This document shows positions 4,387 through 23,419 of a DNA stretch of 64,000 nucleotides, piece after piece. The stretch covers positions 35,272 to 99,271 of the forward strand of contig JACPLD010000002.1 of assembly GCA_016186765.1 (NCBI GenBank), read 5' to 3'. Position numbers and translations under genes: made by a program. A model generated the notes under the pieces. It saw nothing but the letters and a program-made list of their open reading frames with translations. It was not told the origin of the DNA and did no database searches. Position 1 is the first letter of the stretch. Every line of letters starts with the position of its first letter. The DNA comes from Candidatus Kaiserbacteria bacterium. GTDB lineage: Bacteria > Patescibacteriota > Minisyncoccia > Phycocordibacterales > UBA2100.

Positions 4387-5493
4387 TTAGCGTACCACGA
4401 CCTCAACCGGCACGGGCTCGGCGACGTTTACAACCCTAAATGATACCCCGCCGATGAGCTGGCCGAACTCGGTGACGACGTTCACTCGCCACCGCCCTTC
4501 ACGAAGGCGAGTGTTGATCGAGTAGCCGCGATAGCCTCTCTCACGCCCTCCTACGATCGTGTATGGAATGACCTGCTCTGTCACCCATTTGTCCCTTGTA
4601 TCGTCGTACCACTGCCACTCGTGGGAAACGGCCGTTGAAAGCCCGGTGGGAGCGAAGATCGATGTGTACACATACGCTATCTCTCCGGGTGCGGCGTGAA
4701 ATACGGTGTTGTACCTGAGGTAGCCCTCATACCACTCGACCGGCTCCGCAAGAAGTTGGTACTCGTCGCCCACTCGCTCAACAGTGTGATAGACTCCTCC
4801 ATCTTTCAGCGCGAGAGGTAGGGGTGGAATCGCATTTGTGAAGTAGAGAACGTTGAACACGACAAAGATCGCCCCGATCGAACGAGCGATGGGTGTGAGC
4901 TCCCGCCGCAGCTCCGGCATAACAAACGACTGCACTACAAGGAACGCAGCGATAATGATGAGGCTCGTGAGGCCGCTTGCGACGAACATGTACGGCCCGA
5001 TCCTGCCAAAGAGGAGCGGAACGTAAAAAATGAGAAAGGAAAAGAGCGCGATGAAAAGAATGCTCATTTGGAATGCAAAACGAAGGTAAAAGCGCACGAA
5101 TCGCTCATTCGCGATAAGCAGGAGTGCGATAACGGCAACAAAAATCCAACTTAGTGAAAACGCCGCACTCCTCGAGTACAACGAGAGGAAAGCGATGAAG
5201 AGACCGCCAAAGGCATACTGCGATACGACCGGCAGGACAGGGGTCACTTTCAGGAGCCACCACTGCTGCAATCGCCCTGTCTGAATGAGACTGATGACGA
5301 GGCTGATCGAAGAGGCAAGTGCAAGGTAAAAGAAGAGTACGAGACTCGTTAAGAGCGTGTCGACGCGGCGCAGCAGAAAGAAGGTATCGATGAGAAGTGC
5401 TGCGACAAGCGTAAGAGGCGAGATGTACCGCATGTACCACTCCGCCGCCTCCTCGATACTTTCCGGGAGCTTGGGTAATCGCGGTCGGGGCAT
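4387..5493 (-). CDS. Hypothetical polytopic membrane protein with a C-terminal soluble beta-rich domain
   Basis: 368 aa; about 6 TM helices followed by a 130-aa non-membrane tail. Confidence 0.5.
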   Translation of the reverse strand: MPRPRLPKLPESIEEAAEWYMRYISPLTLVAALLIDTFFLLRRVDTLLTSLVLFFYLALASSISLVISLIQTGRLQQWWLLKVTPVLPVVSQYAFGGLFIAFLSLYSRSAAFSLSWIFVAVIALLLIANERFVRFYLRFAFQMSILFIALFSFLIFYVPLLFGRIGPYMFVASGLTSLIIIAAFLVVQSFVMPELRRELTPIARSIGAIFVVFNVLYFTNAIPPLPLALKDGGVYHTVERVGDEYQLLAEPVEWYEGYLRYNTVFHAAPGEIAYVYTSIFAPTGLSTAVSHEWQWYDDTRDKWVTEQVIPYTIVGGRERGYRGYSINTRLREGRWRVNVVTEFGQLIGGVSFRVVNVAEPVPVEVVVR

Positions 5494-5494
5494 A

Positions 5495-6055
5495 TCACGA
5501 GCGATAGCTTGGTGGACTCTCTACGACGCCAGCACGATGGTTCGCAAGTCGCGCGAGCGCATAAAAAAGAGACGAGAGGCGGTTTGCATATGCCCGACTT
5601 GATTCAGAAATGGAACGTTCTCCAGATTCATAGAGAGTCACCAAGCAACGTTCGGCGCGCCTAGACACAGCTCGAGCGATATCGAGGCGGGCAGAAAATT
5701 CCGTCCCGCCTGGTACCAAAAACGTCTTGATCTCGGGCAATTCCTTTTCGACCCCATTGATGAGGGCGCTCATTGTCTCGACGCTTGAAGGTGGCACTAA
5801 TTTCGGCGCTCCTGCCGCTTCCGCCTGTATCGTAAAGAGGTGATCTTGCACCTCGTCCAAGAGCTCCTTCACCTTTCGCTCTCCAACAAGAAAATCGTCG
5901 GGGCACGCGACCTTGCACCAGCCGACTATCGTATTGAGCTCATCGAGCTGCCCAAGGCACTCGAACACCGGAGACGACTTCGAGATACGCTCTCCCTTTG
6001 GGGTATCAAAAAGTTTCGTTGTGCCTTTATCGCCTTTCCCCGTAAAAAGAGCCAT
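5495..6055 (-). CDS. ATP:cob(I)alamin adenosyltransferase, PduO/MMAB type
   Basis: N-terminus MALFTGKGDKGTT...LGQLDELN matches the PduO-type adenosyltransferase signature. Confidence 0.65.
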   Translation of the reverse strand: MALFTGKGDKGTTKLFDTPKGERISKSSPVFECLGQLDELNTIVGWCKVACPDDFLVGERKVKELLDEVQDHLFTIQAEAAGAPKLVPPSSVETMSALINGVEKELPEIKTFLVPGGTEFSARLDIARAVSRRAERCLVTLYESGERSISESSRAYANRLSSLFYALARLANHRAGVVESPPSYRS

Positions 6056-6059
6056 ACGG

Positions 6060-6145
6060 GTGCGCAGGGGGAGACTCGAACTCCCATGCCCTTGCGGGCG
6101 CTACCACCTCAAGGTAGTACGTCTACCAATTTCGCCACCTGCGCA
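6060..6145 (-). tRNA. tRNA-Leu (anticodon GAG), class II with a long variable arm
   Basis: Reverse complement folds as GCGCAGG acceptor / anticodon stem CTACC / loop TTGAGGT / long V-arm / GGAGTTCGAGTCTCC T-arm. Confidence 0.7.
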
Positions 6146-6739: not shown

Positions 6740-7018
6740 TCAGAAAACAACGTCGAACGAATCGAATTCTTGCAAAGGAGAGCGCCACTCGACATCGATA
6801 TCCGAAACGCGTGCGAGAAATGGTCCTTTGCGCAGATGTTCGATGAGTTTTTCGAGCTTGTCGCGGTAGCCTTGCGCGACGACCTCGACACTGAAATCTG
6901 GTGTGTTGCGCACAAACCCCGTGAGAGCCAAGTGGCGTGCGTGCTTTGCAACGAAATCGCGATAGAGGACACCTTGGACTTTTCCCTTCACGATGCATCG
7001 CACTTCTTCGATTTCCAT
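6740..7018 (-). CDS. acyP: Acylphosphatase
   Basis: V.GKVQGV.YR...GFVRN motifs; 92 aa. Confidence 0.8.
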   Translation of the reverse strand: MEIEEVRCIVKGKVQGVLYRDFVAKHARHLALTGFVRNTPDFSVEVVAQGYRDKLEKLIEHLRKGPFLARVSDIDVEWRSPLQEFDSFDVVF

Positions 7019-7019
7019 G

Positions 7020-7091
7020 TGCGCGCTGAGGGATTCGAACCCCCGACCTTCGCTGTGTAAAAGCGTTGCTCTACCACTGAGCTAAGCGCGC
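7020..7091 (-). tRNA. tRNA-Val (anticodon TAC)
   Basis: GCGCGCT acceptor, GCTC/GAGC D-stem, anticodon loop TTTACAC, GGTTCGAATCC T-arm. Confidence 0.7.
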
Positions 7092-12461: not shown

Positions 12462-13472
12462 ATGTCTAAATTGCATTCTCGCATATGTTTTCCTGCAGGG
12501 CGACAAAGAATATTCCTGCAAAAAGTCCTAAAAACAATGAAGATGACAGGCCAGGTGTGCGCGAAACAACTTGGCGTACACCCCCGGACATTTTCTGATT
12601 GGAGGCGCGAAGAATATTCTCTACCGCTCCCGATATTCAAAAAAATCATCAGGAAATCTGGACTCTCAGTCACGAATGTCGAAATACGGGAACCTCAGTG
12701 GCATCTTGAGGAAGCATCGGTAAAGGGAGGCTTCGCTCACTACAAAAAGTACGGATCAGTCTCTATTGACGAGGATCTTCGTAAGGAGCGTTGGCGCACT
12801 TGGTGGGAGAGCGAAGGCAGGTTCAAACAGTCAAATTGGTTTAGGACAAGACCCGTGCGGAAACCGATCCCCAATACGGCGTTGGCAGAATTTGTGGGTA
12901 TTGTTATAGGTGACGGCGGAATAACCAATCGACAAGTTACGATTACTTTGAACAGTGAAACGGATCATGAGTATTCTCAATTCGTAAGCGGCCTAGTGAC
13001 GAGATTGTTTAAAGTACCTGTCAGTAAAATAATGCGAAAAGGCGACATCGCCGTACGTTTAACCTGTTCTCGAACAGAAATGGTACGCATATGCATTGGT
13101 ATTGGCCTCAAGAAAGGAAACAAGCTGAAGCAAAATCTCGACATTCCTCTTTGGATAATGCGAAATCCACAATATGCAAGGGCATGCCTACGCGGACTCA
13201 TGGATACTGATGGTTGCATCTTCAATGAATGCCATAACATTCGCGGGAAGCGGTACTGCTATCCTCGATTGTCATTGGTAAGCGCCTCGGAGCAGCTTCG
13301 CCATTCAGTAAAAAGAATTTTGCACGAACATGGATTCTCGCCTACACTGCGGAATGCAAGAAGCGTCAACTTGGAACGTCGCGAGGATATCGTTCGATAC
13401 TTCCGAAAAATAGGAAGTAATAATCTGAAACACATTCGACGCTTCGAACAATTTACAGGAGGGGTCGGATAA
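12462..13472 (+). CDS. Free-standing LAGLIDADG homing endonuclease (double motif) with an N-terminal HTH
   Basis: LAEFVGIVIGDGGI and LRGLMDTDGCIF motifs. The stop codon lies inside the first 15 nt of tRNA-Ser. Confidence 0.7.
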   Translation: MSKLHSRICFPAGRQRIFLQKVLKTMKMTGQVCAKQLGVHPRTFSDWRREEYSLPLPIFKKIIRKSGLSVTNVEIREPQWHLEEASVKGGFAHYKKYGSVSIDEDLRKERWRTWWESEGRFKQSNWFRTRPVRKPIPNTALAEFVGIVIGDGGITNRQVTITLNSETDHEYSQFVSGLVTRLFKVPVSKIMRKGDIAVRLTCSRTEMVRICIGIGLKKGNKLKQNLDIPLWIMRNPQYARACLRGLMDTDGCIFNECHNIRGKRYCYPRLSLVSASEQLRHSVKRILHEHGFSPTLRNARSVNLERREDIVRYFRKIGSNNLKHIRRFEQFTGGVG

Positions 13473-13539
13473 TGGTATTCCACTAGTCTTGAAAACTAGC
13501 GCCCGCAAGGGCTTGTGAGTTCGAATCTCACCCCCTCCG
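13458..13539 (+). tRNA. tRNA-Ser (anticodon TGA), class II
   Basis: GGAGGGG acceptor, loop CTTGAAA, long V-arm CGCCCGCAAGGGC, GTGAGTTCGAATCTCAC T-arm, and G73. Confidence 0.7.
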
Positions 13540-13594
13540 CAGCTATTCACAGCCCCTCCCGAGAGAGCTTGCGCCCAGTGTACAATGCCTTTAT

Positions 13595-14675: not shown

Positions 14676-16550
14676 TTACTGAACGGTGACGATCGTGCTC
14701 GCCTGCCGCGTGCCGCCGCCGATCGTTACGCACTTGAGAACGAATGTTGCAGCAGAGGAGAGCGGTGGTGTGACGACTGCGCCATTCACGTTCGTCGCAT
14801 TTTTATTCTGCTCGGTAAAGCTCGGCAGGTCGGGACTCGAAATGACGCACGACTGCATCCCCGAGGTAACCCATCCAATTGCCGAAGTTGTGCCAGAGAA
14901 CACCGTCTTTGGATTCGTGATAAGTACGATCCCGGGTTTTGCGACCTGTATGCTGCAATCCTTCGATACGTTCCTGCCCTCATCGGTACACGTGAGACCA
15001 TAGGTCGCGACGTTCGTACCCAATGGAGGATTCGCGATGGTGACAGTGGTCGAGCCAGTCTGCGCGCCGTTCGTCTGGAAGCCAGAGCCAGAACTCGTGC
15101 CTGAGGAGCAGGAATAGGTGATCGCTATCGTCATTCCGACATCAGCGATCTGCGGCTGGCACGAGAGCTGTGCGGTGAGCGACGTGCCGCCACTGCCCGT
15201 CGGCACGCACTGCCAGCCGACGACACATGAGTTGTTTTGCCCGCCGTAGGTCGGCTTCCACGTTCCGTCTTGGCACGGTTGCTGCGGTTGCACGGGCGCC
15301 GGCGGACAATTTTGCCCTTGCTGAGGCGGGGGAGCACACTTATTGCTCCCTGAACCGGAGCCCCCGAACAATCCGAACAGTCCCGAGCTTCTGGAATCTC
15401 CCGACCCTTGAGCACAGCCGTACTGGCAGTATTGCACGGGGGTGTCAACGCACTGATTGTTACGAGAGTACAATGTGTTGCCTTGACAGATCGTCTGCCC
15501 ACCGTAGCACGTTCCTGGCGGACGCGGCATCTGGTTCCCCGGCGGAGGCTGCCCTCCAAGACCCTGCGGCATCCCTCCTCCACCTCCCGGCCCTCCTGGA
15601 GGAGGAAACGTTGACGGCGACGGCGGAGGAGGAGGGGGTGGTCCAGGCGGGGGTGGAGGTGGTGTATTACCATCACCACCCGGCGGATTCTCGAGAGCAC
15701 TCAATTTCTTCTGATTCTCTCTCAACTGAGCAAGACGGCTCTGAAGTTTTTCCAACCCTTCCTGTGCTTGGTCAAGATTTTCTTGCGTGTCGTCCCTGTC
15801 GTTATACTGTTTATCGCATGGAACGCCACCTGTATCACCGACACATTTGGCGAGCTTGTCAAGGGCTGCTTCGTAGGCTTCGCGAGATTCTTTGACGGCC
15901 GTTTCTTGATCTTTGATTTTCGACTCGACATCTTCAATCTCGCCGTCGAGGACTTTCTGCAGGGCATCCTGGGTCGCCTTATCAAGCGTGCCCTGCGAAC
16001 CGAGAGCGTCCGTGAGGTCTTTACTTAGCTCAGGCGATTTCTCTAATATCTTCTTGATCTCTTCCGCACTCAATGGCTTGCCGTTCTCGTCAAAAAATTC
16101 GTTCTGGCATTCACCCTTTTTTACATTGGGGTTCGGGATTGATTGTATCTCACCAGTTCCATCACGCTTGAGGACCACTTTGGAGTCCATGCCGGAACAC
16201 TCCTTCGCGCCATAAAAGTAACTCACGCACCTGTTTGCTTCAACCGTTTCGCCTTTCCCTAGTTTCGTTGTTGCACTACCAGCAATAACAATCTGATTAG
16301 GTTTTGTTGCTTTGCTCTTCAGCCCACTGCATATCTTTTCTATTTCCTTGCTGAGCTTTTCCTGTTCGGCTTTCGCAGACCCCTCCGTAGGAGACGCCGC
16401 AACTGCAACCTGCGTGTCACCTGCTACCGAAGAAAGCGGTGGGGTGGCGAGCTCGAAGGTAGCAACAGCTCCTGCGCCGAGCATGAGGGCAACCACGAGC
16501 GCACCAAGGACAGACACGCCACGCTCTCCCGCATGCGGGGATTTGCTCAT
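14676..16550 (-). CDS. Secreted Cys-rich, poly-proline protein (paralogue A), probably a surface protein
   Basis: Signal peptide, coiled coil, PPPPPPGPPPPPPPSPSTFPPPGGPGGGG, many Cys pairs, and a C-terminal domain shared with 22031-23419. Confidence 0.65.
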   Translation of the reverse strand: MSKSPHAGERGVSVLGALVVALMLGAGAVATFELATPPLSSVAGDTQVAVAASPTEGSAKAEQEKLSKEIEKICSGLKSKATKPNQIVIAGSATTKLGKGETVEANRCVSYFYGAKECSGMDSKVVLKRDGTGEIQSIPNPNVKKGECQNEFFDENGKPLSAEEIKKILEKSPELSKDLTDALGSQGTLDKATQDALQKVLDGEIEDVESKIKDQETAVKESREAYEAALDKLAKCVGDTGGVPCDKQYNDRDDTQENLDQAQEGLEKLQSRLAQLRENQKKLSALENPPGGDGNTPPPPPPGPPPPPPPSPSTFPPPGGPGGGGGMPQGLGGQPPPGNQMPRPPGTCYGGQTICQGNTLYSRNNQCVDTPVQYCQYGCAQGSGDSRSSGLFGLFGGSGSGSNKCAPPPQQGQNCPPAPVQPQQPCQDGTWKPTYGGQNNSCVVGWQCVPTGSGGTSLTAQLSCQPQIADVGMTIAITYSCSSGTSSGSGFQTNGAQTGSTTVTIANPPLGTNVATYGLTCTDEGRNVSKDCSIQVAKPGIVLITNPKTVFSGTTSAIGWVTSGMQSCVISSPDLPSFTEQNKNATNVNGAVVTPPLSSAATFVLKCVTIGGGTRQASTIVTVQ

Positions 16551-21054: not shown

Positions 21055-21090
21055 TAATTCGAACCTCCATCTGCTAGGATATTAAGGCAA

Positions 21091-21163
21091 CCGCCCGTAG
21101 CTCAATTGGTAGAGCAGCGACCTTTTAAGTCGTTGGTTCCGCGTTCGATTCGCGGCGGGCGGA
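21091..21163 (+). tRNA. tRNA-Lys (anticodon TTT)
   Basis: CCGCCCG/CGGGCGG acceptor, GCTC/GAGC D-stem, loop CTTTTAA, CCGCGTTCGATTCGCGG T-arm. Confidence 0.7.
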
Positions 21164-21166
21164 CCT

Positions 21167-22024
21167 GTGAACTCATTTAAACAACGCTGCATCGAACTGC
21201 GGAAGCAGGACCTGACTCTTCCGGAAATAGTGCGAATCACGGGTCGCCCGAAATCCTCCGTACACTTTCACATACAAGATATTCCACTTAGCAGTCGGAA
21301 ACTACAGAAAATTCGAGATGCAAACGTACTACACATAAGAAACATCGCATTGCAACGCAGAGGCGTGAGCGCGCGACTTTTTAAGAAATTCACGAAGTGG
21401 GACCGTGATCTGGTCTGCCTTGTCTCTCACCTACTCTTTGATGGTGAAATAAAACGCGGTGGGTGCATCTACAACAATAGAAATGCTGCGTTGCTTGAAC
21501 ATGTAGAAAGTTGCATGAAAAGAATCTACCCTGCTTCGCCAAGGCGATACATCAACACACATACCGGTGTATCTCGTATCAGCTACTTCAATGTGTCACT
21601 TGGAGAATACATAAAGGAAAAGTCGGTGCATTTGCTTCGAGCAATACCTTCAATGTCCGTGGAACTTAAAAGAGCTTTTTTACAGTCCTTTTTTGATGAT
21701 GAGGGATGTGTCAACTTTCGGCCGCACAGAAATCATCGACGGATCCGAGGATACCAAAAGGATGTGGCGATCTTGAGCGTGGTTAAAAGACTACTTGCCG
21801 ATTTTTATATTGAATCGCGCATTCAGCTTCCAAACGAAATAGTAATCATCGGTAAGGAAAATTTTCTTAAATTCCAAAAAGAAATCGATTTCTCTCCGGG
21901 CGTACGCATCAATGGAAAGCGCTCCAATAGCATCTGGAAAAAATCTCTCGAGAAGCGCGAATTGCTTGAGCGTGCAATAGCATCTTACAAACCCGTCGGA
22001 AGCAACGGCGTGCACCGTACGTAG
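21167..22024 (+). CDS. Free-standing LAGLIDADG homing endonuclease (second, divergent copy) with an N-terminal HTH
   Basis: LVSHLLFDGEI and LQSFFDDEGCVN motifs; overall layout homologous to 12462-13472. The only possible start is GTG, 3 nt after the tRNA-Lys 3' end. Confidence 0.6.
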   Translation: MNSFKQRCIELRKQDLTLPEIVRITGRPKSSVHFHIQDIPLSSRKLQKIRDANVLHIRNIALQRRGVSARLFKKFTKWDRDLVCLVSHLLFDGEIKRGGCIYNNRNAALLEHVESCMKRIYPASPRRYINTHTGVSRISYFNVSLGEYIKEKSVHLLRAIPSMSVELKRAFLQSFFDDEGCVNFRPHRNHRRIRGYQKDVAILSVVKRLLADFYIESRIQLPNEIVIIGKENFLKFQKEIDFSPGVRINGKRSNSIWKKSLEKRELLERAIASYKPVGSNGVHRT

Positions 22025-22030
22025 TGCGGA

Positions 22031-23419
22031 CTAAATTGTGAGTTGAACCGTTACGTAGTCCGTCACGGGCGTTCCGCCAGGAGTGAGACACGAGATCGTG
22101 AATGTCGTTGCGCCCGAAAGTGGGACCGTCGCGGCCCCACCCGAGAGCGAGTCTTCATTGAAGCTCCCATCGGGCGAGGTGATTGAGCAGGTTGAGACTC
22201 CCCTTGTGTTCCAAAATACCGACGTGCGCGTGCCAAGCGACACCTTATCCGGCACTGCCCAGATCTCAACCTGCGGCGGCACGGTCGGCGCCTGCGGCTG
22301 TGGGGCAGGTGCGGGGGCAGGGGCAGGAGCCGGCGGGGTTGCCTGTTTCTCGACGACGGGCACCGAGGGGGGCGCGGGAGAACCCACCTGATAGCCACGC
22401 CACGCGCAGAGACTGTCGAAGAACGCTGGCGGGATCACGAAGGAGATAACAGAAGTCCCCCATGGGCGACTCTGACACATACCCGAAACAATGCCCTGCG
22501 GCTGCCCGCCGAGCGTATCGGAGCCGTAGAAGCCAGCAACCTCCGTGTTCGCTCCAGGGTCGCGCGCCTGTGCGACGATGGTTGCGCCCCCGTCGGTCAC
22601 GACGATATCACCCCGCGTCCCGGATTGCAGATTCACCTGCTCGCCGGAGAGGTTCGTGCCGATGGCAGGAGCAGGAGGTGGTGTGGTACCTGTGGATGTC
22701 TTTACTTCCCCGAGCTTGGGAAGCGCATCGCTCACGTTCAACAATGCGCCCTCCCCGGCGCCGCTTCCGGCGTTCAGCGCATTCAAAAGCTCGTCGGAGC
22801 CGCTTGTGGTCAAAAGCGAATTTAGTGAATCTGATGTCGGGGGAACATAGTAGGCGCAAGGATCCACCGAAGGAACCGTCACCTGGTAGTACGACGTGCA
22901 GCCGCTCGCACCTCCAAGGTTTCCCGACTGCGGGGGTGGTGGCGGGGGTGGTGGCGGCTGTCCTCCACCCCCTCCACCTTGCATCGCCTGCTTCAGCATA
23001 TCCATGACACCCTTGAGCACATCCATCATTCCCTTCGCATCGCCAACGCCCTGCGATTGGCCCTGCTGGTCCGTGAAGCTCGTTCCTTCACATTTATTTG
23101 CTGCCACACATATGCCGATAACCTTCCCGCCGGGCGGTGTATCGAAACATATCCCGGGAGGGCACAGGTACGTGTTCTTGCCGCCGATGCATGTGCCGTT
23201 CGGTCCGGGGATTTTGTTGCAACCACATTTGGGTATCCAAGGATTGCACATCGCGTTCGCCGCGCCACTCATCGCTGCATAAGCAGTAAAAGGAACAACG
23301 AGGAATGCCAAAAGAAATCCCACGGTAAGAACCATCGCGAGACGAAGACTCATGCACTCAATGCTACAAGACCGTATACAATCCGCAACAGCTTTTTTTA
23401 GGATTTGTTGACACCCCAT
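22031..23419 (-). CDS. Secreted Cys-rich, poly-proline protein (paralogue B)
   Basis: Signal/TM segment, Cys-rich N-terminus, GGGGGGQPPPPPPPPPQ and PAPAPAPAPAPQPQAP runs, and a C-terminal domain WNTRGVSTCSITSPDG...ATTFTISCLTPGG...VTVQ aligned with paralogue A. Confidence 0.6.
   Translation of the reverse strand: MGCQQILKKAVADCIRSCSIECMSLRLAMVLTVGFLLAFLVVPFTAYAAMSGAANAMCNPWIPKCGCNKIPGPNGTCIGGKNTYLCPPGICFDTPPGGKVIGICVAANKCEGTSFTDQQGQSQGVGDAKGMMDVLKGVMDMLKQAMQGGGGGGQPPPPPPPPPQSGNLGGASGCTSYYQVTVPSVDPCAYYVPPTSDSLNSLLTTSGSDELLNALNAGSGAGEGALLNVSDALPKLGEVKTSTGTTPPPAPAIGTNLSGEQVNLQSGTRGDIVVTDGGATIVAQARDPGANTEVAGFYGSDTLGGQPQGIVSGMCQSRPWGTSVISFVIPPAFFDSLCAWRGYQVGSPAPPSVPVVEKQATPPAPAPAPAPAPQPQAPTVPPQVEIWAVPDKVSLGTRTSVFWNTRGVSTCSITSPDGSFNEDSLSGGAATVPLSGATTFTISCLTPGGTPVTDYVTVQLTI

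Follow-up and report, generated by a model that had tools for sequence, protein, structure and literature searches.

What kind of gene settles three nucleotides (nt) after the end of a tRNA, and how it could be expressed from such a place, are the questions raised by a LAGLIDADG endonuclease gene found downstream of tRNA-Lys(UUU) in a 64,000-nt stretch of a Candidatus Kaiserbacteria genome (contig JACPLD010000002.1, positions 35,272 to 99,271; hereafter the window). The gene is real and intact, it is under strong purifying selection, and it has kept both catalytic acids. With modest confidence, we interpret it as a free-standing and selfish homing-endonuclease gene of Paceibacteria (Parcubacteria, candidate phyla radiation or CPR) that has settled permanently on the 3' edge of tRNA-Lys(UUU), and that would be expressed through the tRNA transcription unit.

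The original prediction, made from the letters of the window, described a second LAGLIDADG gene lying right after tRNA-Lys(TTT), and the end of the tRNA, the CCT spacer and the GTG start codon were all confirmed (Table 1). ARAGORN extends its tRNA call over two further C's past position 21163, and the acceptor and T stems are fully paired (12/12 pairs) in the window and in every related locus. The additional statement that this GTG was the sole possible start was correct on the upstream side only: the last in-frame stop (TAG, 21110-21112) is located within the tRNA gene and no ATG, GTG or TTG occurs between this stop and the GTG, but in-frame starts are present further downstream, and the NCBI annotation uses one of them, Met117, to produce a protein of 169 amino acids (aa) (P0069). 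The GTG is the real start, because homologues align with the 285-aa product from its first residue, and an alignment of 31 of these sequences is conserved from there on (MNxFKxQCIxLRKQDYTLxEIVxITGRPKTSV). The arrangement had also been described as a fusion of tRNA and endonuclease genes, a term that does not apply to what are abutting or, at another tRNA of the window, overlapping genes.

The domain content, motifs and predicted fold of the 285-aa protein place it in the LAGLIDADG structural family. The Pfam match to LAGLIDADG_3 scores 33.9 bits against a gathering threshold of 22.5 (E 3.9e-8), and the N-terminal region has weak matches to HTH_IclR and Sigma70_r4_2. The register of the two LAGLIDADG motifs was taken from an hhalign comparison with the second LAGLIDADG family of the window (see below); position 8 of this motif is the metal-binding acid and position 9 a glycine, and D92, G93, F175, F176, D178, E179, G180 and C181 are all invariant across the 31-sequence alignment. 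A collection of 5.8 billion sequences yielded 651 homologues at E <= 1e-3, the best 120 of which are 55-75% identical and 259-304 aa long, except for the 169-aa NCBI call, and an exhaustive search returned 752 clusters at 50% identity. The AlphaFold2 model (mean predicted local distance difference test, pLDDT, 84.6) has three helices at the N-terminus, then a long linker helix, and its core is a double alpha-beta-beta-alpha-beta-beta-alpha fold; with this model, Foldseek retrieved from the PDB the TliVMA intein endonuclease domain (E 2e-7), I-DmoI (TM ~0.6), WhiA, I-Tsp061I, I-SceI and PI-SceI, at a sequence identity of 13-17% to these solved structures.

With I-DmoI, I-SceI and intein endonuclease domains, the protein thus has in common two LAGLIDADG motifs, an acid at position 8 and a similar predicted fold. 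In contrast to them, it is encoded outside any intron or intein and flush to a tRNA, and carries an extra N-terminal helix-turn-helix (HTH) domain and a long linker helix. Rfam detects the tRNA alone at this locus, and no intein splicing blocks occur in the protein. WhiA, a domesticated LAGLIDADG transcription factor with a C-terminal HTH, has lost the catalytic acids and is near-universal in its clades. The combination of LAGLIDADG fold and HTH, together with the structural match, is shared with WhiA, whereas the HTH of the tRNA-Lys-linked endonuclease is N-terminal, its acids are invariant and its distribution is sporadic. The gene is neither borne by an intron or intein, nor of the WhiA type, nor part of an integrase island.

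To follow the junction across species, one genome per GTDB species was scanned, giving 80 endonuclease loci, 76 of which include the upstream DNA. A same-strand tRNA-Lys(TTT) was found immediately upstream of the endonuclease gene in 75 of these 76 loci, and because of this recurrence in other species-level loci, the junction seen in the window is not due to chance. Eighty junctions were then compared (75 genome loci, the window and four metagenome loci), with the discriminator placed by stem pairing. A single base separates the discriminator (A73) from the start codon in 59 of them (55 C, 3 T and 1 A), and 12 have a spacer of 2-4 bases, including the window and the related locus L056, both of which read A-CCT-GTG. 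Spacers of 6-68 bases were confined to seven junctions, all from divergent members (38-46% identity), and the two remaining junctions lead into broken endonuclease genes, with an in-frame stop in L061 and a frameshift in L082. The CCA end is encoded after only one of 110 tRNA-Lys genes, versus 16 of 54 non-Lys tRNAs, while the base C74 is encoded after about 95% of tRNAs, Lys and non-Lys alike, when all loci and the window tRNAs are considered. That C74 is nearly always encoded, and the full CCA seldom, may point to a rule of 3' processing peculiar to these bacteria.

The surroundings of the pair are conserved as well. The usual block runs from ruvA through a Mur ligase gene and a gene for a 333-aa protein to tRNA-Lys and the endonuclease gene, with holA and polA beyond; in some loci, spoU and a DoxX-like gene are intercalated ahead of the tRNA. 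In 24 loci the unit has the orientation seen in the window, and in 41 others the module made of tRNA and endonuclease gene is alone inverted between unchanged flanks; for the most part, the two orientations follow the clades of the endonuclease tree. Seven distant members occur in another genomic context and are still adjacent to tRNA-Lys; the tRNA/endonuclease pair therefore travels as a unit. Over about 80 species, the gene is physically locked to tRNA-Lys, even when the module is inverted or found elsewhere in the genome.

Table 1. Features of the window discussed in the text, with the evidence on which each call is based
Feature	Position	Strand	Evidence and remarks
Promoter-like motif upstream of tRNA-Lys	21058-21090	+	GAACC 21061-21065, 9 nt, -10-like TAGGAT 21075-21080, then ATTAAGG, CAA
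tRNA-Lys(UUU) gene	21091-21163	+	ARAGORN; Rfam RF00005, 69.4 bits; discriminator A = 21163
CCT spacer from discriminator to start codon	21164-21166	+	CCA unencoded; single C in most relatives
LAGLIDADG endonuclease gene, 285 aa, GTG start, TAG stop	21167-22024	+	ORF list, Pfam, homologues, AlphaFold2
N-terminal three-helix HTH-like domain, residues 3-36	21173-21274	+	Weak Pfam; helices 3-13, 18-25, 29-36 at pLDDT 87-95; motif TGRPKTSV
First LAGLIDADG motif SHLLFDGEI, residues 87-95	21425-21451	+	D92-G93 = motif positions 8-9
Second LAGLIDADG motif SFFDDEGC, residues 174-181	21686-21709	+	E179-G180 = motif positions 8-9
Convergent neighbour, 462-aa Pro/Cys-rich secreted-type protein	22031-23419	-	ORF list; right edge of the endonuclease insertion/deletion
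Second LAGLIDADG family, 336 aa, HTH_3-type N-terminus	12462-13472	+	Last 15 nt overlap tRNA-Ser(UGA)
tRNA-Ser(UGA)	13458-13540	+	ARAGORN, Rfam; its 5' end is shared with the last 15 nt of the 336-aa gene
tRNA-Val(UAC) 7020-7091, A-C-ATG, full-length acylphosphatase ORF 6740-7018	6740-7091	-	Pfam 2.7e-25, profile 2-84 of 85
tRNA-Leu(GAG) 6058-6145, 5 nt, full-length cobalamin adenosyltransferase ORF 5495-6055	5495-6145	-	Pfam 1.2e-41

Such a junction has direct consequences for the way in which the endonuclease open reading frame (ORF) might be expressed. The 12 bases preceding its start codon belong to the G+C-rich, base-paired acceptor strand of the tRNA and leave no room for a promoter or a ribosome-binding site. 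Comparison of the upstream regions of 76 loci revealed a putative promoter, tAGAACC-N9-TAtAAT-AttAAGGtAa, ending at the 5' end of the tRNA; this motif emerged from the multi-locus comparison only, as a sigma-70 consensus scan of the window detected no promoter upstream of tRNA-Lys, nor any convincing terminator downstream of the endonuclease ORF. Shine-Dalgarno 5-mers precede none of the 64 window ORFs of at least 100 aa (background 5.9%), and a TANNNT box is found 7-10 nt before the start of 12 of these 64 (background 4.6%, p 3e-5). This enrichment would be the signature of leaderless transcripts, and the organism seems to use leaderless or very short-leader initiation. Taken together, the lack of room, the upstream motif, the absence of Shine-Dalgarno sequences and the frequent TANNNT boxes suggest that the gene is transcribed along with the tRNA, and that processing at the tRNA 3' end then yields a nearly leaderless mRNA. 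The suggestion that the tRNA may act as a promoter or processing module is thus likely, the more so as ordinary genes also start 0-5 nt after tRNAs, or 1-5 nt within the window. In many loci with the inverted arrangement (L014, L021, L028, L031, L035, L044, L050, L062 and L082), a promoter-like TGGTAnTATAtAAAGG is found about 50 nt upstream of tRNA-Lys, and is followed in this upstream region of about 70 nt by a conserved leader, GGGAGTCGTCG ... GATAGTGTGCGAT.AGAAAATATACAT.

Two of these ordinary genes, coding for an acylphosphatase and a cobalamin adenosyltransferase, are found in the window itself (Table 1). Elsewhere, a full-length infB (IF-2) gene begins 2 nt past tRNA-Ser(UGA) in L085, where this tRNA is itself overrun by a LAGLIDADG ORF, so that three genes follow one another without spacers, and in the complete Kaiserbacteria genome CP066682, tRNA-Leu(GAG) ends with ...A-CC-ATG, the A of the encoded CCA being that of the start codon of a full-length GNAT acetyltransferase gene. 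These genes provide independent support that such junctions work. A general conservation of ordinary genes abutting tRNAs was ruled out by examining the tRNA-Val/acylphosphatase junction in four relatives, in which the gap measures 46-136 nt, the tRNA lies on the other strand, or it is absent. As this junction is not conserved, ordinary genes appear to gain and lose their abutment to tRNAs sporadically. Unlike these, the endonuclease/tRNA-Lys pairing is conserved family-wide, and it is the only one to be so.

The conserved gene order and a level of identity comparable to that of PolA pointed to a core or housekeeping gene, a reading that had to be demoted once a metagenome scan anchored on the neighbouring HolA had revealed both absences and scars. 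Among the 80 Kaiserbacteria-like loci returned, 31 have tRNA-Lys(TTT) without the endonuclease gene versus 6 with it, which is the kind of presence/absence polymorphism that the original prediction had proposed to look for in population metagenomes. One endonuclease-less locus (L149) retains the first 11 codons of the gene (ATGAACACTTTCAAGCAACAATGTTGTGCATTA) after A73-C74, beyond which the sequence passes into the 3' end of the convergent neighbour. Shorter remnants are found directly after A73-C74 in other loci, namely ATGAA in L091, L116 and L148, ATGAGG in L151, and mutated versions in L141 and L144. About 0.1 such matches would be expected by chance; these remnants are therefore deletion scars, and the endonuclease gene was formerly present at those loci. 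In L103, L148 and L149, the tRNA trailer leads directly into the 3' end of a neighbour of the type found at 22031-23419, and the segment inserted or deleted is the endonuclease ORF alone (858 nt).

The pair formed by L138 (with the gene) and L148 (without it) brings this polymorphism into a single population. Their HolA proteins are 99% identical, and the DNA identity, which reaches 98.4-99.4% from holA to the endonuclease stop codon, falls to 91% in the tRNA and to 85% past the tRNA. This profile marks a recombination breakpoint at the locus, inside one polymorphic population, and makes the pair mosaic; no donor lineage for either sequence was found among the loci compared. In a further endonuclease-less locus (L132, 7002-7140), tRNA-Lys(UUU) is followed after 1 nt by ATGAATTTTGCCCATATCGGC... 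(MNFAHIGFAVCDLEKSKGFY), and the ORF occupying the place of the endonuclease may, by eye only, be of the VOC/glyoxalase type.

Base composition sets the gene apart from its surroundings. The GC content of the endonuclease gene is below that of its flanks in 65 of 65 loci (0.42 vs 0.53 overall and 0.44 vs 0.59 at third positions), and it follows the GC content of the host with a slope that reaches 0.63 only. Over host identities of 0.3-0.6, the endonuclease stays at an identity of about 0.53, and in close pairs it falls below the host value; its synonymous divergence, too, exceeds that of the flanks in the three pairs window/L056, L021/L028 and L030/L032. L021 had looked like an outlier suggestive of transfer, with an endonuclease identity of 0.78 against about 0.49 for the host proteins; this contrast was an artefact produced by a RuvA ORF that had been wrongly assigned, and PolA, Mur ligase and HolA all agree with the endonuclease.

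The habit of lying flush with a specific tRNA gene is recurrent among LAGLIDADG genes in these bacteria. The second LAGLIDADG family of the window is larger than the tRNA-Lys-linked one (942 hits), and its members overlap the 5' end of tRNA-Ser(UGA) in seven of seven loci, by 15 nt in the window and by 15-37 nt in six of six loci of distant homologues from other CPR lineages. A third LAGLIDADG_3 ORF of 216 aa, unrelated to the other two, ends 2 nt before tRNA-Leu(GAG) in CP066682 (L173, 4326-5562); it is absent from the homologous place in the window, where rplS ends 12 nt from tRNA-Leu. Both the tRNA-Ser(UGA) and the tRNA-Leu(GAG) families have a lower GC content than their surroundings. The original prediction that tRNA genes are preferred sites is borne out by these copies, together with the 3' edge of tRNA-Lys(UUU), by the existence of further tRNA-adjacent copies beyond the window and by the conservation of the motifs. 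It had also assumed that the two window genes were paralogues with a common architecture of HTH and LLFDGEI/FFDDEGC motifs. The HTH-like domain and both motifs are indeed present in the 285-aa protein, but close paralogy is not: BLASTP analyses detected no similarity between the 285-aa and 336-aa proteins, and hhalign gave a probability of 15% (E 0.0018) with the motifs alone aligned; the two belong to distinct families with a remote relationship. Public annotation shortens the 336-aa product to 311 aa (P0121), as it does the 285-aa one to 169 aa, presumably because gene callers avoid ends that abut or overlap tRNAs. Two other nuclease-type ORFs lie near tRNAs: an HNH-type ORF (5289-5795) overlaps tRNA-Leu(UAA) by 47 nt in L085 (2501-5833), and a GIY-YIG ORF lies 78 nt past tRNA-Ser(UGA) in L087.

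On the other side of the endonuclease gene, the convergent neighbour lies 6 nt past the stop codon (not 7, as first counted). Each of the two LAGLIDADG genes had been thought to adjoin one of two Cys/Pro-rich secreted paralogues, which is true here, whereas the 336-aa gene is separated from the second of them (14676-16550, minus strand) by two ORFs. The two secreted-type proteins have only a C-terminal domain in common (about 85 aa, 37% identity, E 3e-9), and the 462-aa type adjoins the endonuclease gene in only 10 of about 80 loci; this neighbour is lineage-specific, and its position is treated as coincidental.

The series of events that we favour may be outlined as follows. Transcription would start at the tRNA-Lys promoter and run on into the endonuclease ORF, which would have neither a promoter nor a ribosome-binding site to itself and would make up the 3' trailer of the tRNA. 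The tRNA would then be excised by RNase P and an RNase Z-type activity, with a 3' cut after A73 or C74, and the mRNA set free in this way would carry 0-3 nt ahead of its start codon; it would begin with C-AUG, or directly with AUG where the cut is made past C74. A host devoid of Shine-Dalgarno sequences might translate this nearly leaderless mRNA, for which an AUG at the RNA 5' end should suffice. The protein would cleave endonuclease-less tRNA-Lys loci at a putative site spanning the conserved acceptor 3' strand and the trailer; since the insertion would split this site, carriers would be protected. The gene would be copied in by recombinational repair, and lost again and again by deletion. 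On balance, the profile described above would fit a homing-endonuclease gene kept functional yet dispensable, and repeatedly deleted.

Several observations weigh against this scenario. In model bacteria, leaderless translation drops with a 5' extension of a single nucleotide, and the window has one of 3 nt before a GTG. Co-transcription, the position of the cut and leaderless translation are all deduced from DNA, and cleavage by the protein and its target site are both predicted. Homing in a non-mating bacterium needs some route bringing both alleles into one cell. No systematic difference was seen between the tRNA sequences of loci with and without the endonuclease gene, and self-protection would therefore rest on the trailer side alone. 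Among the loci compared, there was no clear case of recent horizontal transfer of the gene. Finally, its clades, module orientations and flank distances are largely coherent, and dN/dS (the ratio of nonsynonymous to synonymous substitution rates) is about 0.06-0.07 in the closest pairs, as low as for the housekeeping flanks, although these ratios are rough with synonymous sites near saturation in all pairs; both points would also fit a vertically inherited gene that is useful to its host. The main uncertainty is whether the gene still homes or has been domesticated as an accessory gene.

Domestication would make the protein a DNA-binding factor comparable to WhiA, with a role in regulation or repair; its gene would pass vertically from cell to cell line, draw its expression from the tRNA-Lys unit and disappear from many lineages as CPR genomes shrink. 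Besides the low dN/dS and the coherent clades just mentioned, the conserved order of the surrounding genes points in this direction, as do the extra HTH domain and the presence of WhiA among the structural matches. The mean pairwise identity of the endonuclease (0.54-0.57) equals that of PolA and Mur ligase and exceeds that of RuvA, the 333-aa protein and HolA; its distances correlate with those of the flanking proteins with r values of 0.54-0.77, as compared with 0.65-0.89 among the flanking proteins themselves, and among about 78 copies there are only two pseudogenes, each with a single lesion. A domesticated gene is nevertheless difficult to reconcile with two invariant catalytic acids, which WhiA has lost, with clean deletions that leave it absent from 31 of 37 close loci, with one polymorphic population having a recombination breakpoint at the locus, and with a deficit in GC and third-position GC in all 65 loci. 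Moreover, two other unrelated LAGLIDADG families are flush to tRNAs, and three independent domestications are hard to credit. We regard domestication as rather unlikely, while giving it more weight than any of the alternatives that follow.

The gene may also be an immobile relic, left by an ancient homing endonuclease that has lost its mobility, and be kept only through tight linkage to an essential tRNA, away from which it would not be expressed. Its largely vertical-looking inheritance, the inversion of the module as a unit and the many deletions would all be explained in this way. Yet linkage alone cannot keep an ORF intact: purifying selection and invariant catalytic residues over about 80 species call for selection at the protein level, and neutral relics would mostly be pseudogenes, which the low number of broken copies contradicts. 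A relic of this kind is improbable.

Less probable still is an expression of the gene that would be independent of tRNA processing, either from a promoter within the tRNA gene or with the acceptor strand acting as a Shine-Dalgarno mimic on the unprocessed precursor. The acceptor 3' strand does read GGGCGG or GGGGGG just before the start codon, but it is engaged in the pairing of the acceptor stem and stops 2-4 nt short of the start, in an organism with no Shine-Dalgarno usage, and its G+C-rich sequence offers no -10-like box 7-12 nt before the start. Lastly, although tRNA 3' ends are classical integration sites, an integrase-type island is refuted by an insertion reduced to the ORF, by the lack of att-like direct repeats of the tRNA 3' end on the far side and by the absence of an integrase in the flanks, and a chance ORF by hundreds of conserved homologues, so that neither deserves any appreciable weight.

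A free-standing homing endonuclease at the edge of a tRNA gene recalls several systems. In mitochondria, tRNAs reportedly punctuate the transcripts, giving rise to leaderless mRNAs, as set out by Ojala, Montoya and Attardi in 1981. Likewise, the coding sequence considered here lies at or next to a tRNA 3' end, with no 5' untranslated region and no Shine-Dalgarno sequence, and excision of the tRNA would set the 5' end of the mRNA. In contrast to mitochondria, a bacterial chromosome of the free-living type is involved, some tRNAs only are concerned, and the arrangement is documented by DNA sequence alone. A second parallel is provided by the free-standing homing endonucleases of T4-like phages and by 'intronless homing', and in particular by SegB, a GIY-YIG enzyme encoded in the tRNA gene cluster of T4 with its own expression signals (PMC2330249). 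Both systems combine an endonuclease gene located beside conserved tRNA genes, a polymorphism in the presence of this gene, and flanks whose similarity changes sharply at the nuclease gene. They differ in that the present gene is of the LAGLIDADG type, resides on a cellular chromosome 1-3 nt after a tRNA and has no signals of its own, and that cleavage and homing are here both putative. Within the CPR, LAGLIDADG endonucleases have been described in insertion sequences of rRNA genes, in a study that never mentions tRNA (PMC11270868). The radiation, the superfamily and the choice of highly conserved RNA genes as targets are the same; unlike these intervening sequences, which are found inside rRNA genes, the tRNA-Lys-linked endonuclease gene lies outside the RNA gene, at its edge. 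An incomplete literature search, with few subscription journals covered, found no account of LAGLIDADG genes abutting tRNAs or of leaderless mRNAs released from tRNAs in bacteria. What is new here is how precisely and how widely tRNA and endonuclease gene are associated, together with the expression logic that this association implies.

A broader proposal can be put forward tentatively, at slightly less than an even chance. The large CPR radiation appears to make no use of Shine-Dalgarno sequences. In CPR bacteria devoid of them, tRNA 3' processing may be a regular source of translatable and nearly leaderless mRNAs, equivalent in bacteria to the tRNA punctuation of mitochondria, and several unrelated LAGLIDADG families may each have specialised on one tRNA edge (the 3' edge for Lys-UUU, the 5' edge for Ser-UGA and Leu-GAG), with the conserved tRNA sequence serving as half of the target site and the tRNA unit as the sole means of expression.

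The locus exposes a systematic annotation error, as the NCBI pipeline cut the gene to 169 aa (P0069) because its true start abuts a tRNA. The family also offers about 80 naturally occurring LAGLIDADG variants, whose target would presumably be a short and conserved half-site derived from the tRNA, and which could be of interest for endonuclease engineering. If the interpretation that we favour is true, these genes would represent a third lifestyle of homing endonucleases, beside introns and inteins on the one hand and free-standing phage genes on the other, namely that of a parasite of the edge of a cellular tRNA gene. They would also offer a testable bacterial case of mRNA 5' ends made by tRNA processing, which bears on the way in which translation starts in uncultured CPR bacteria.

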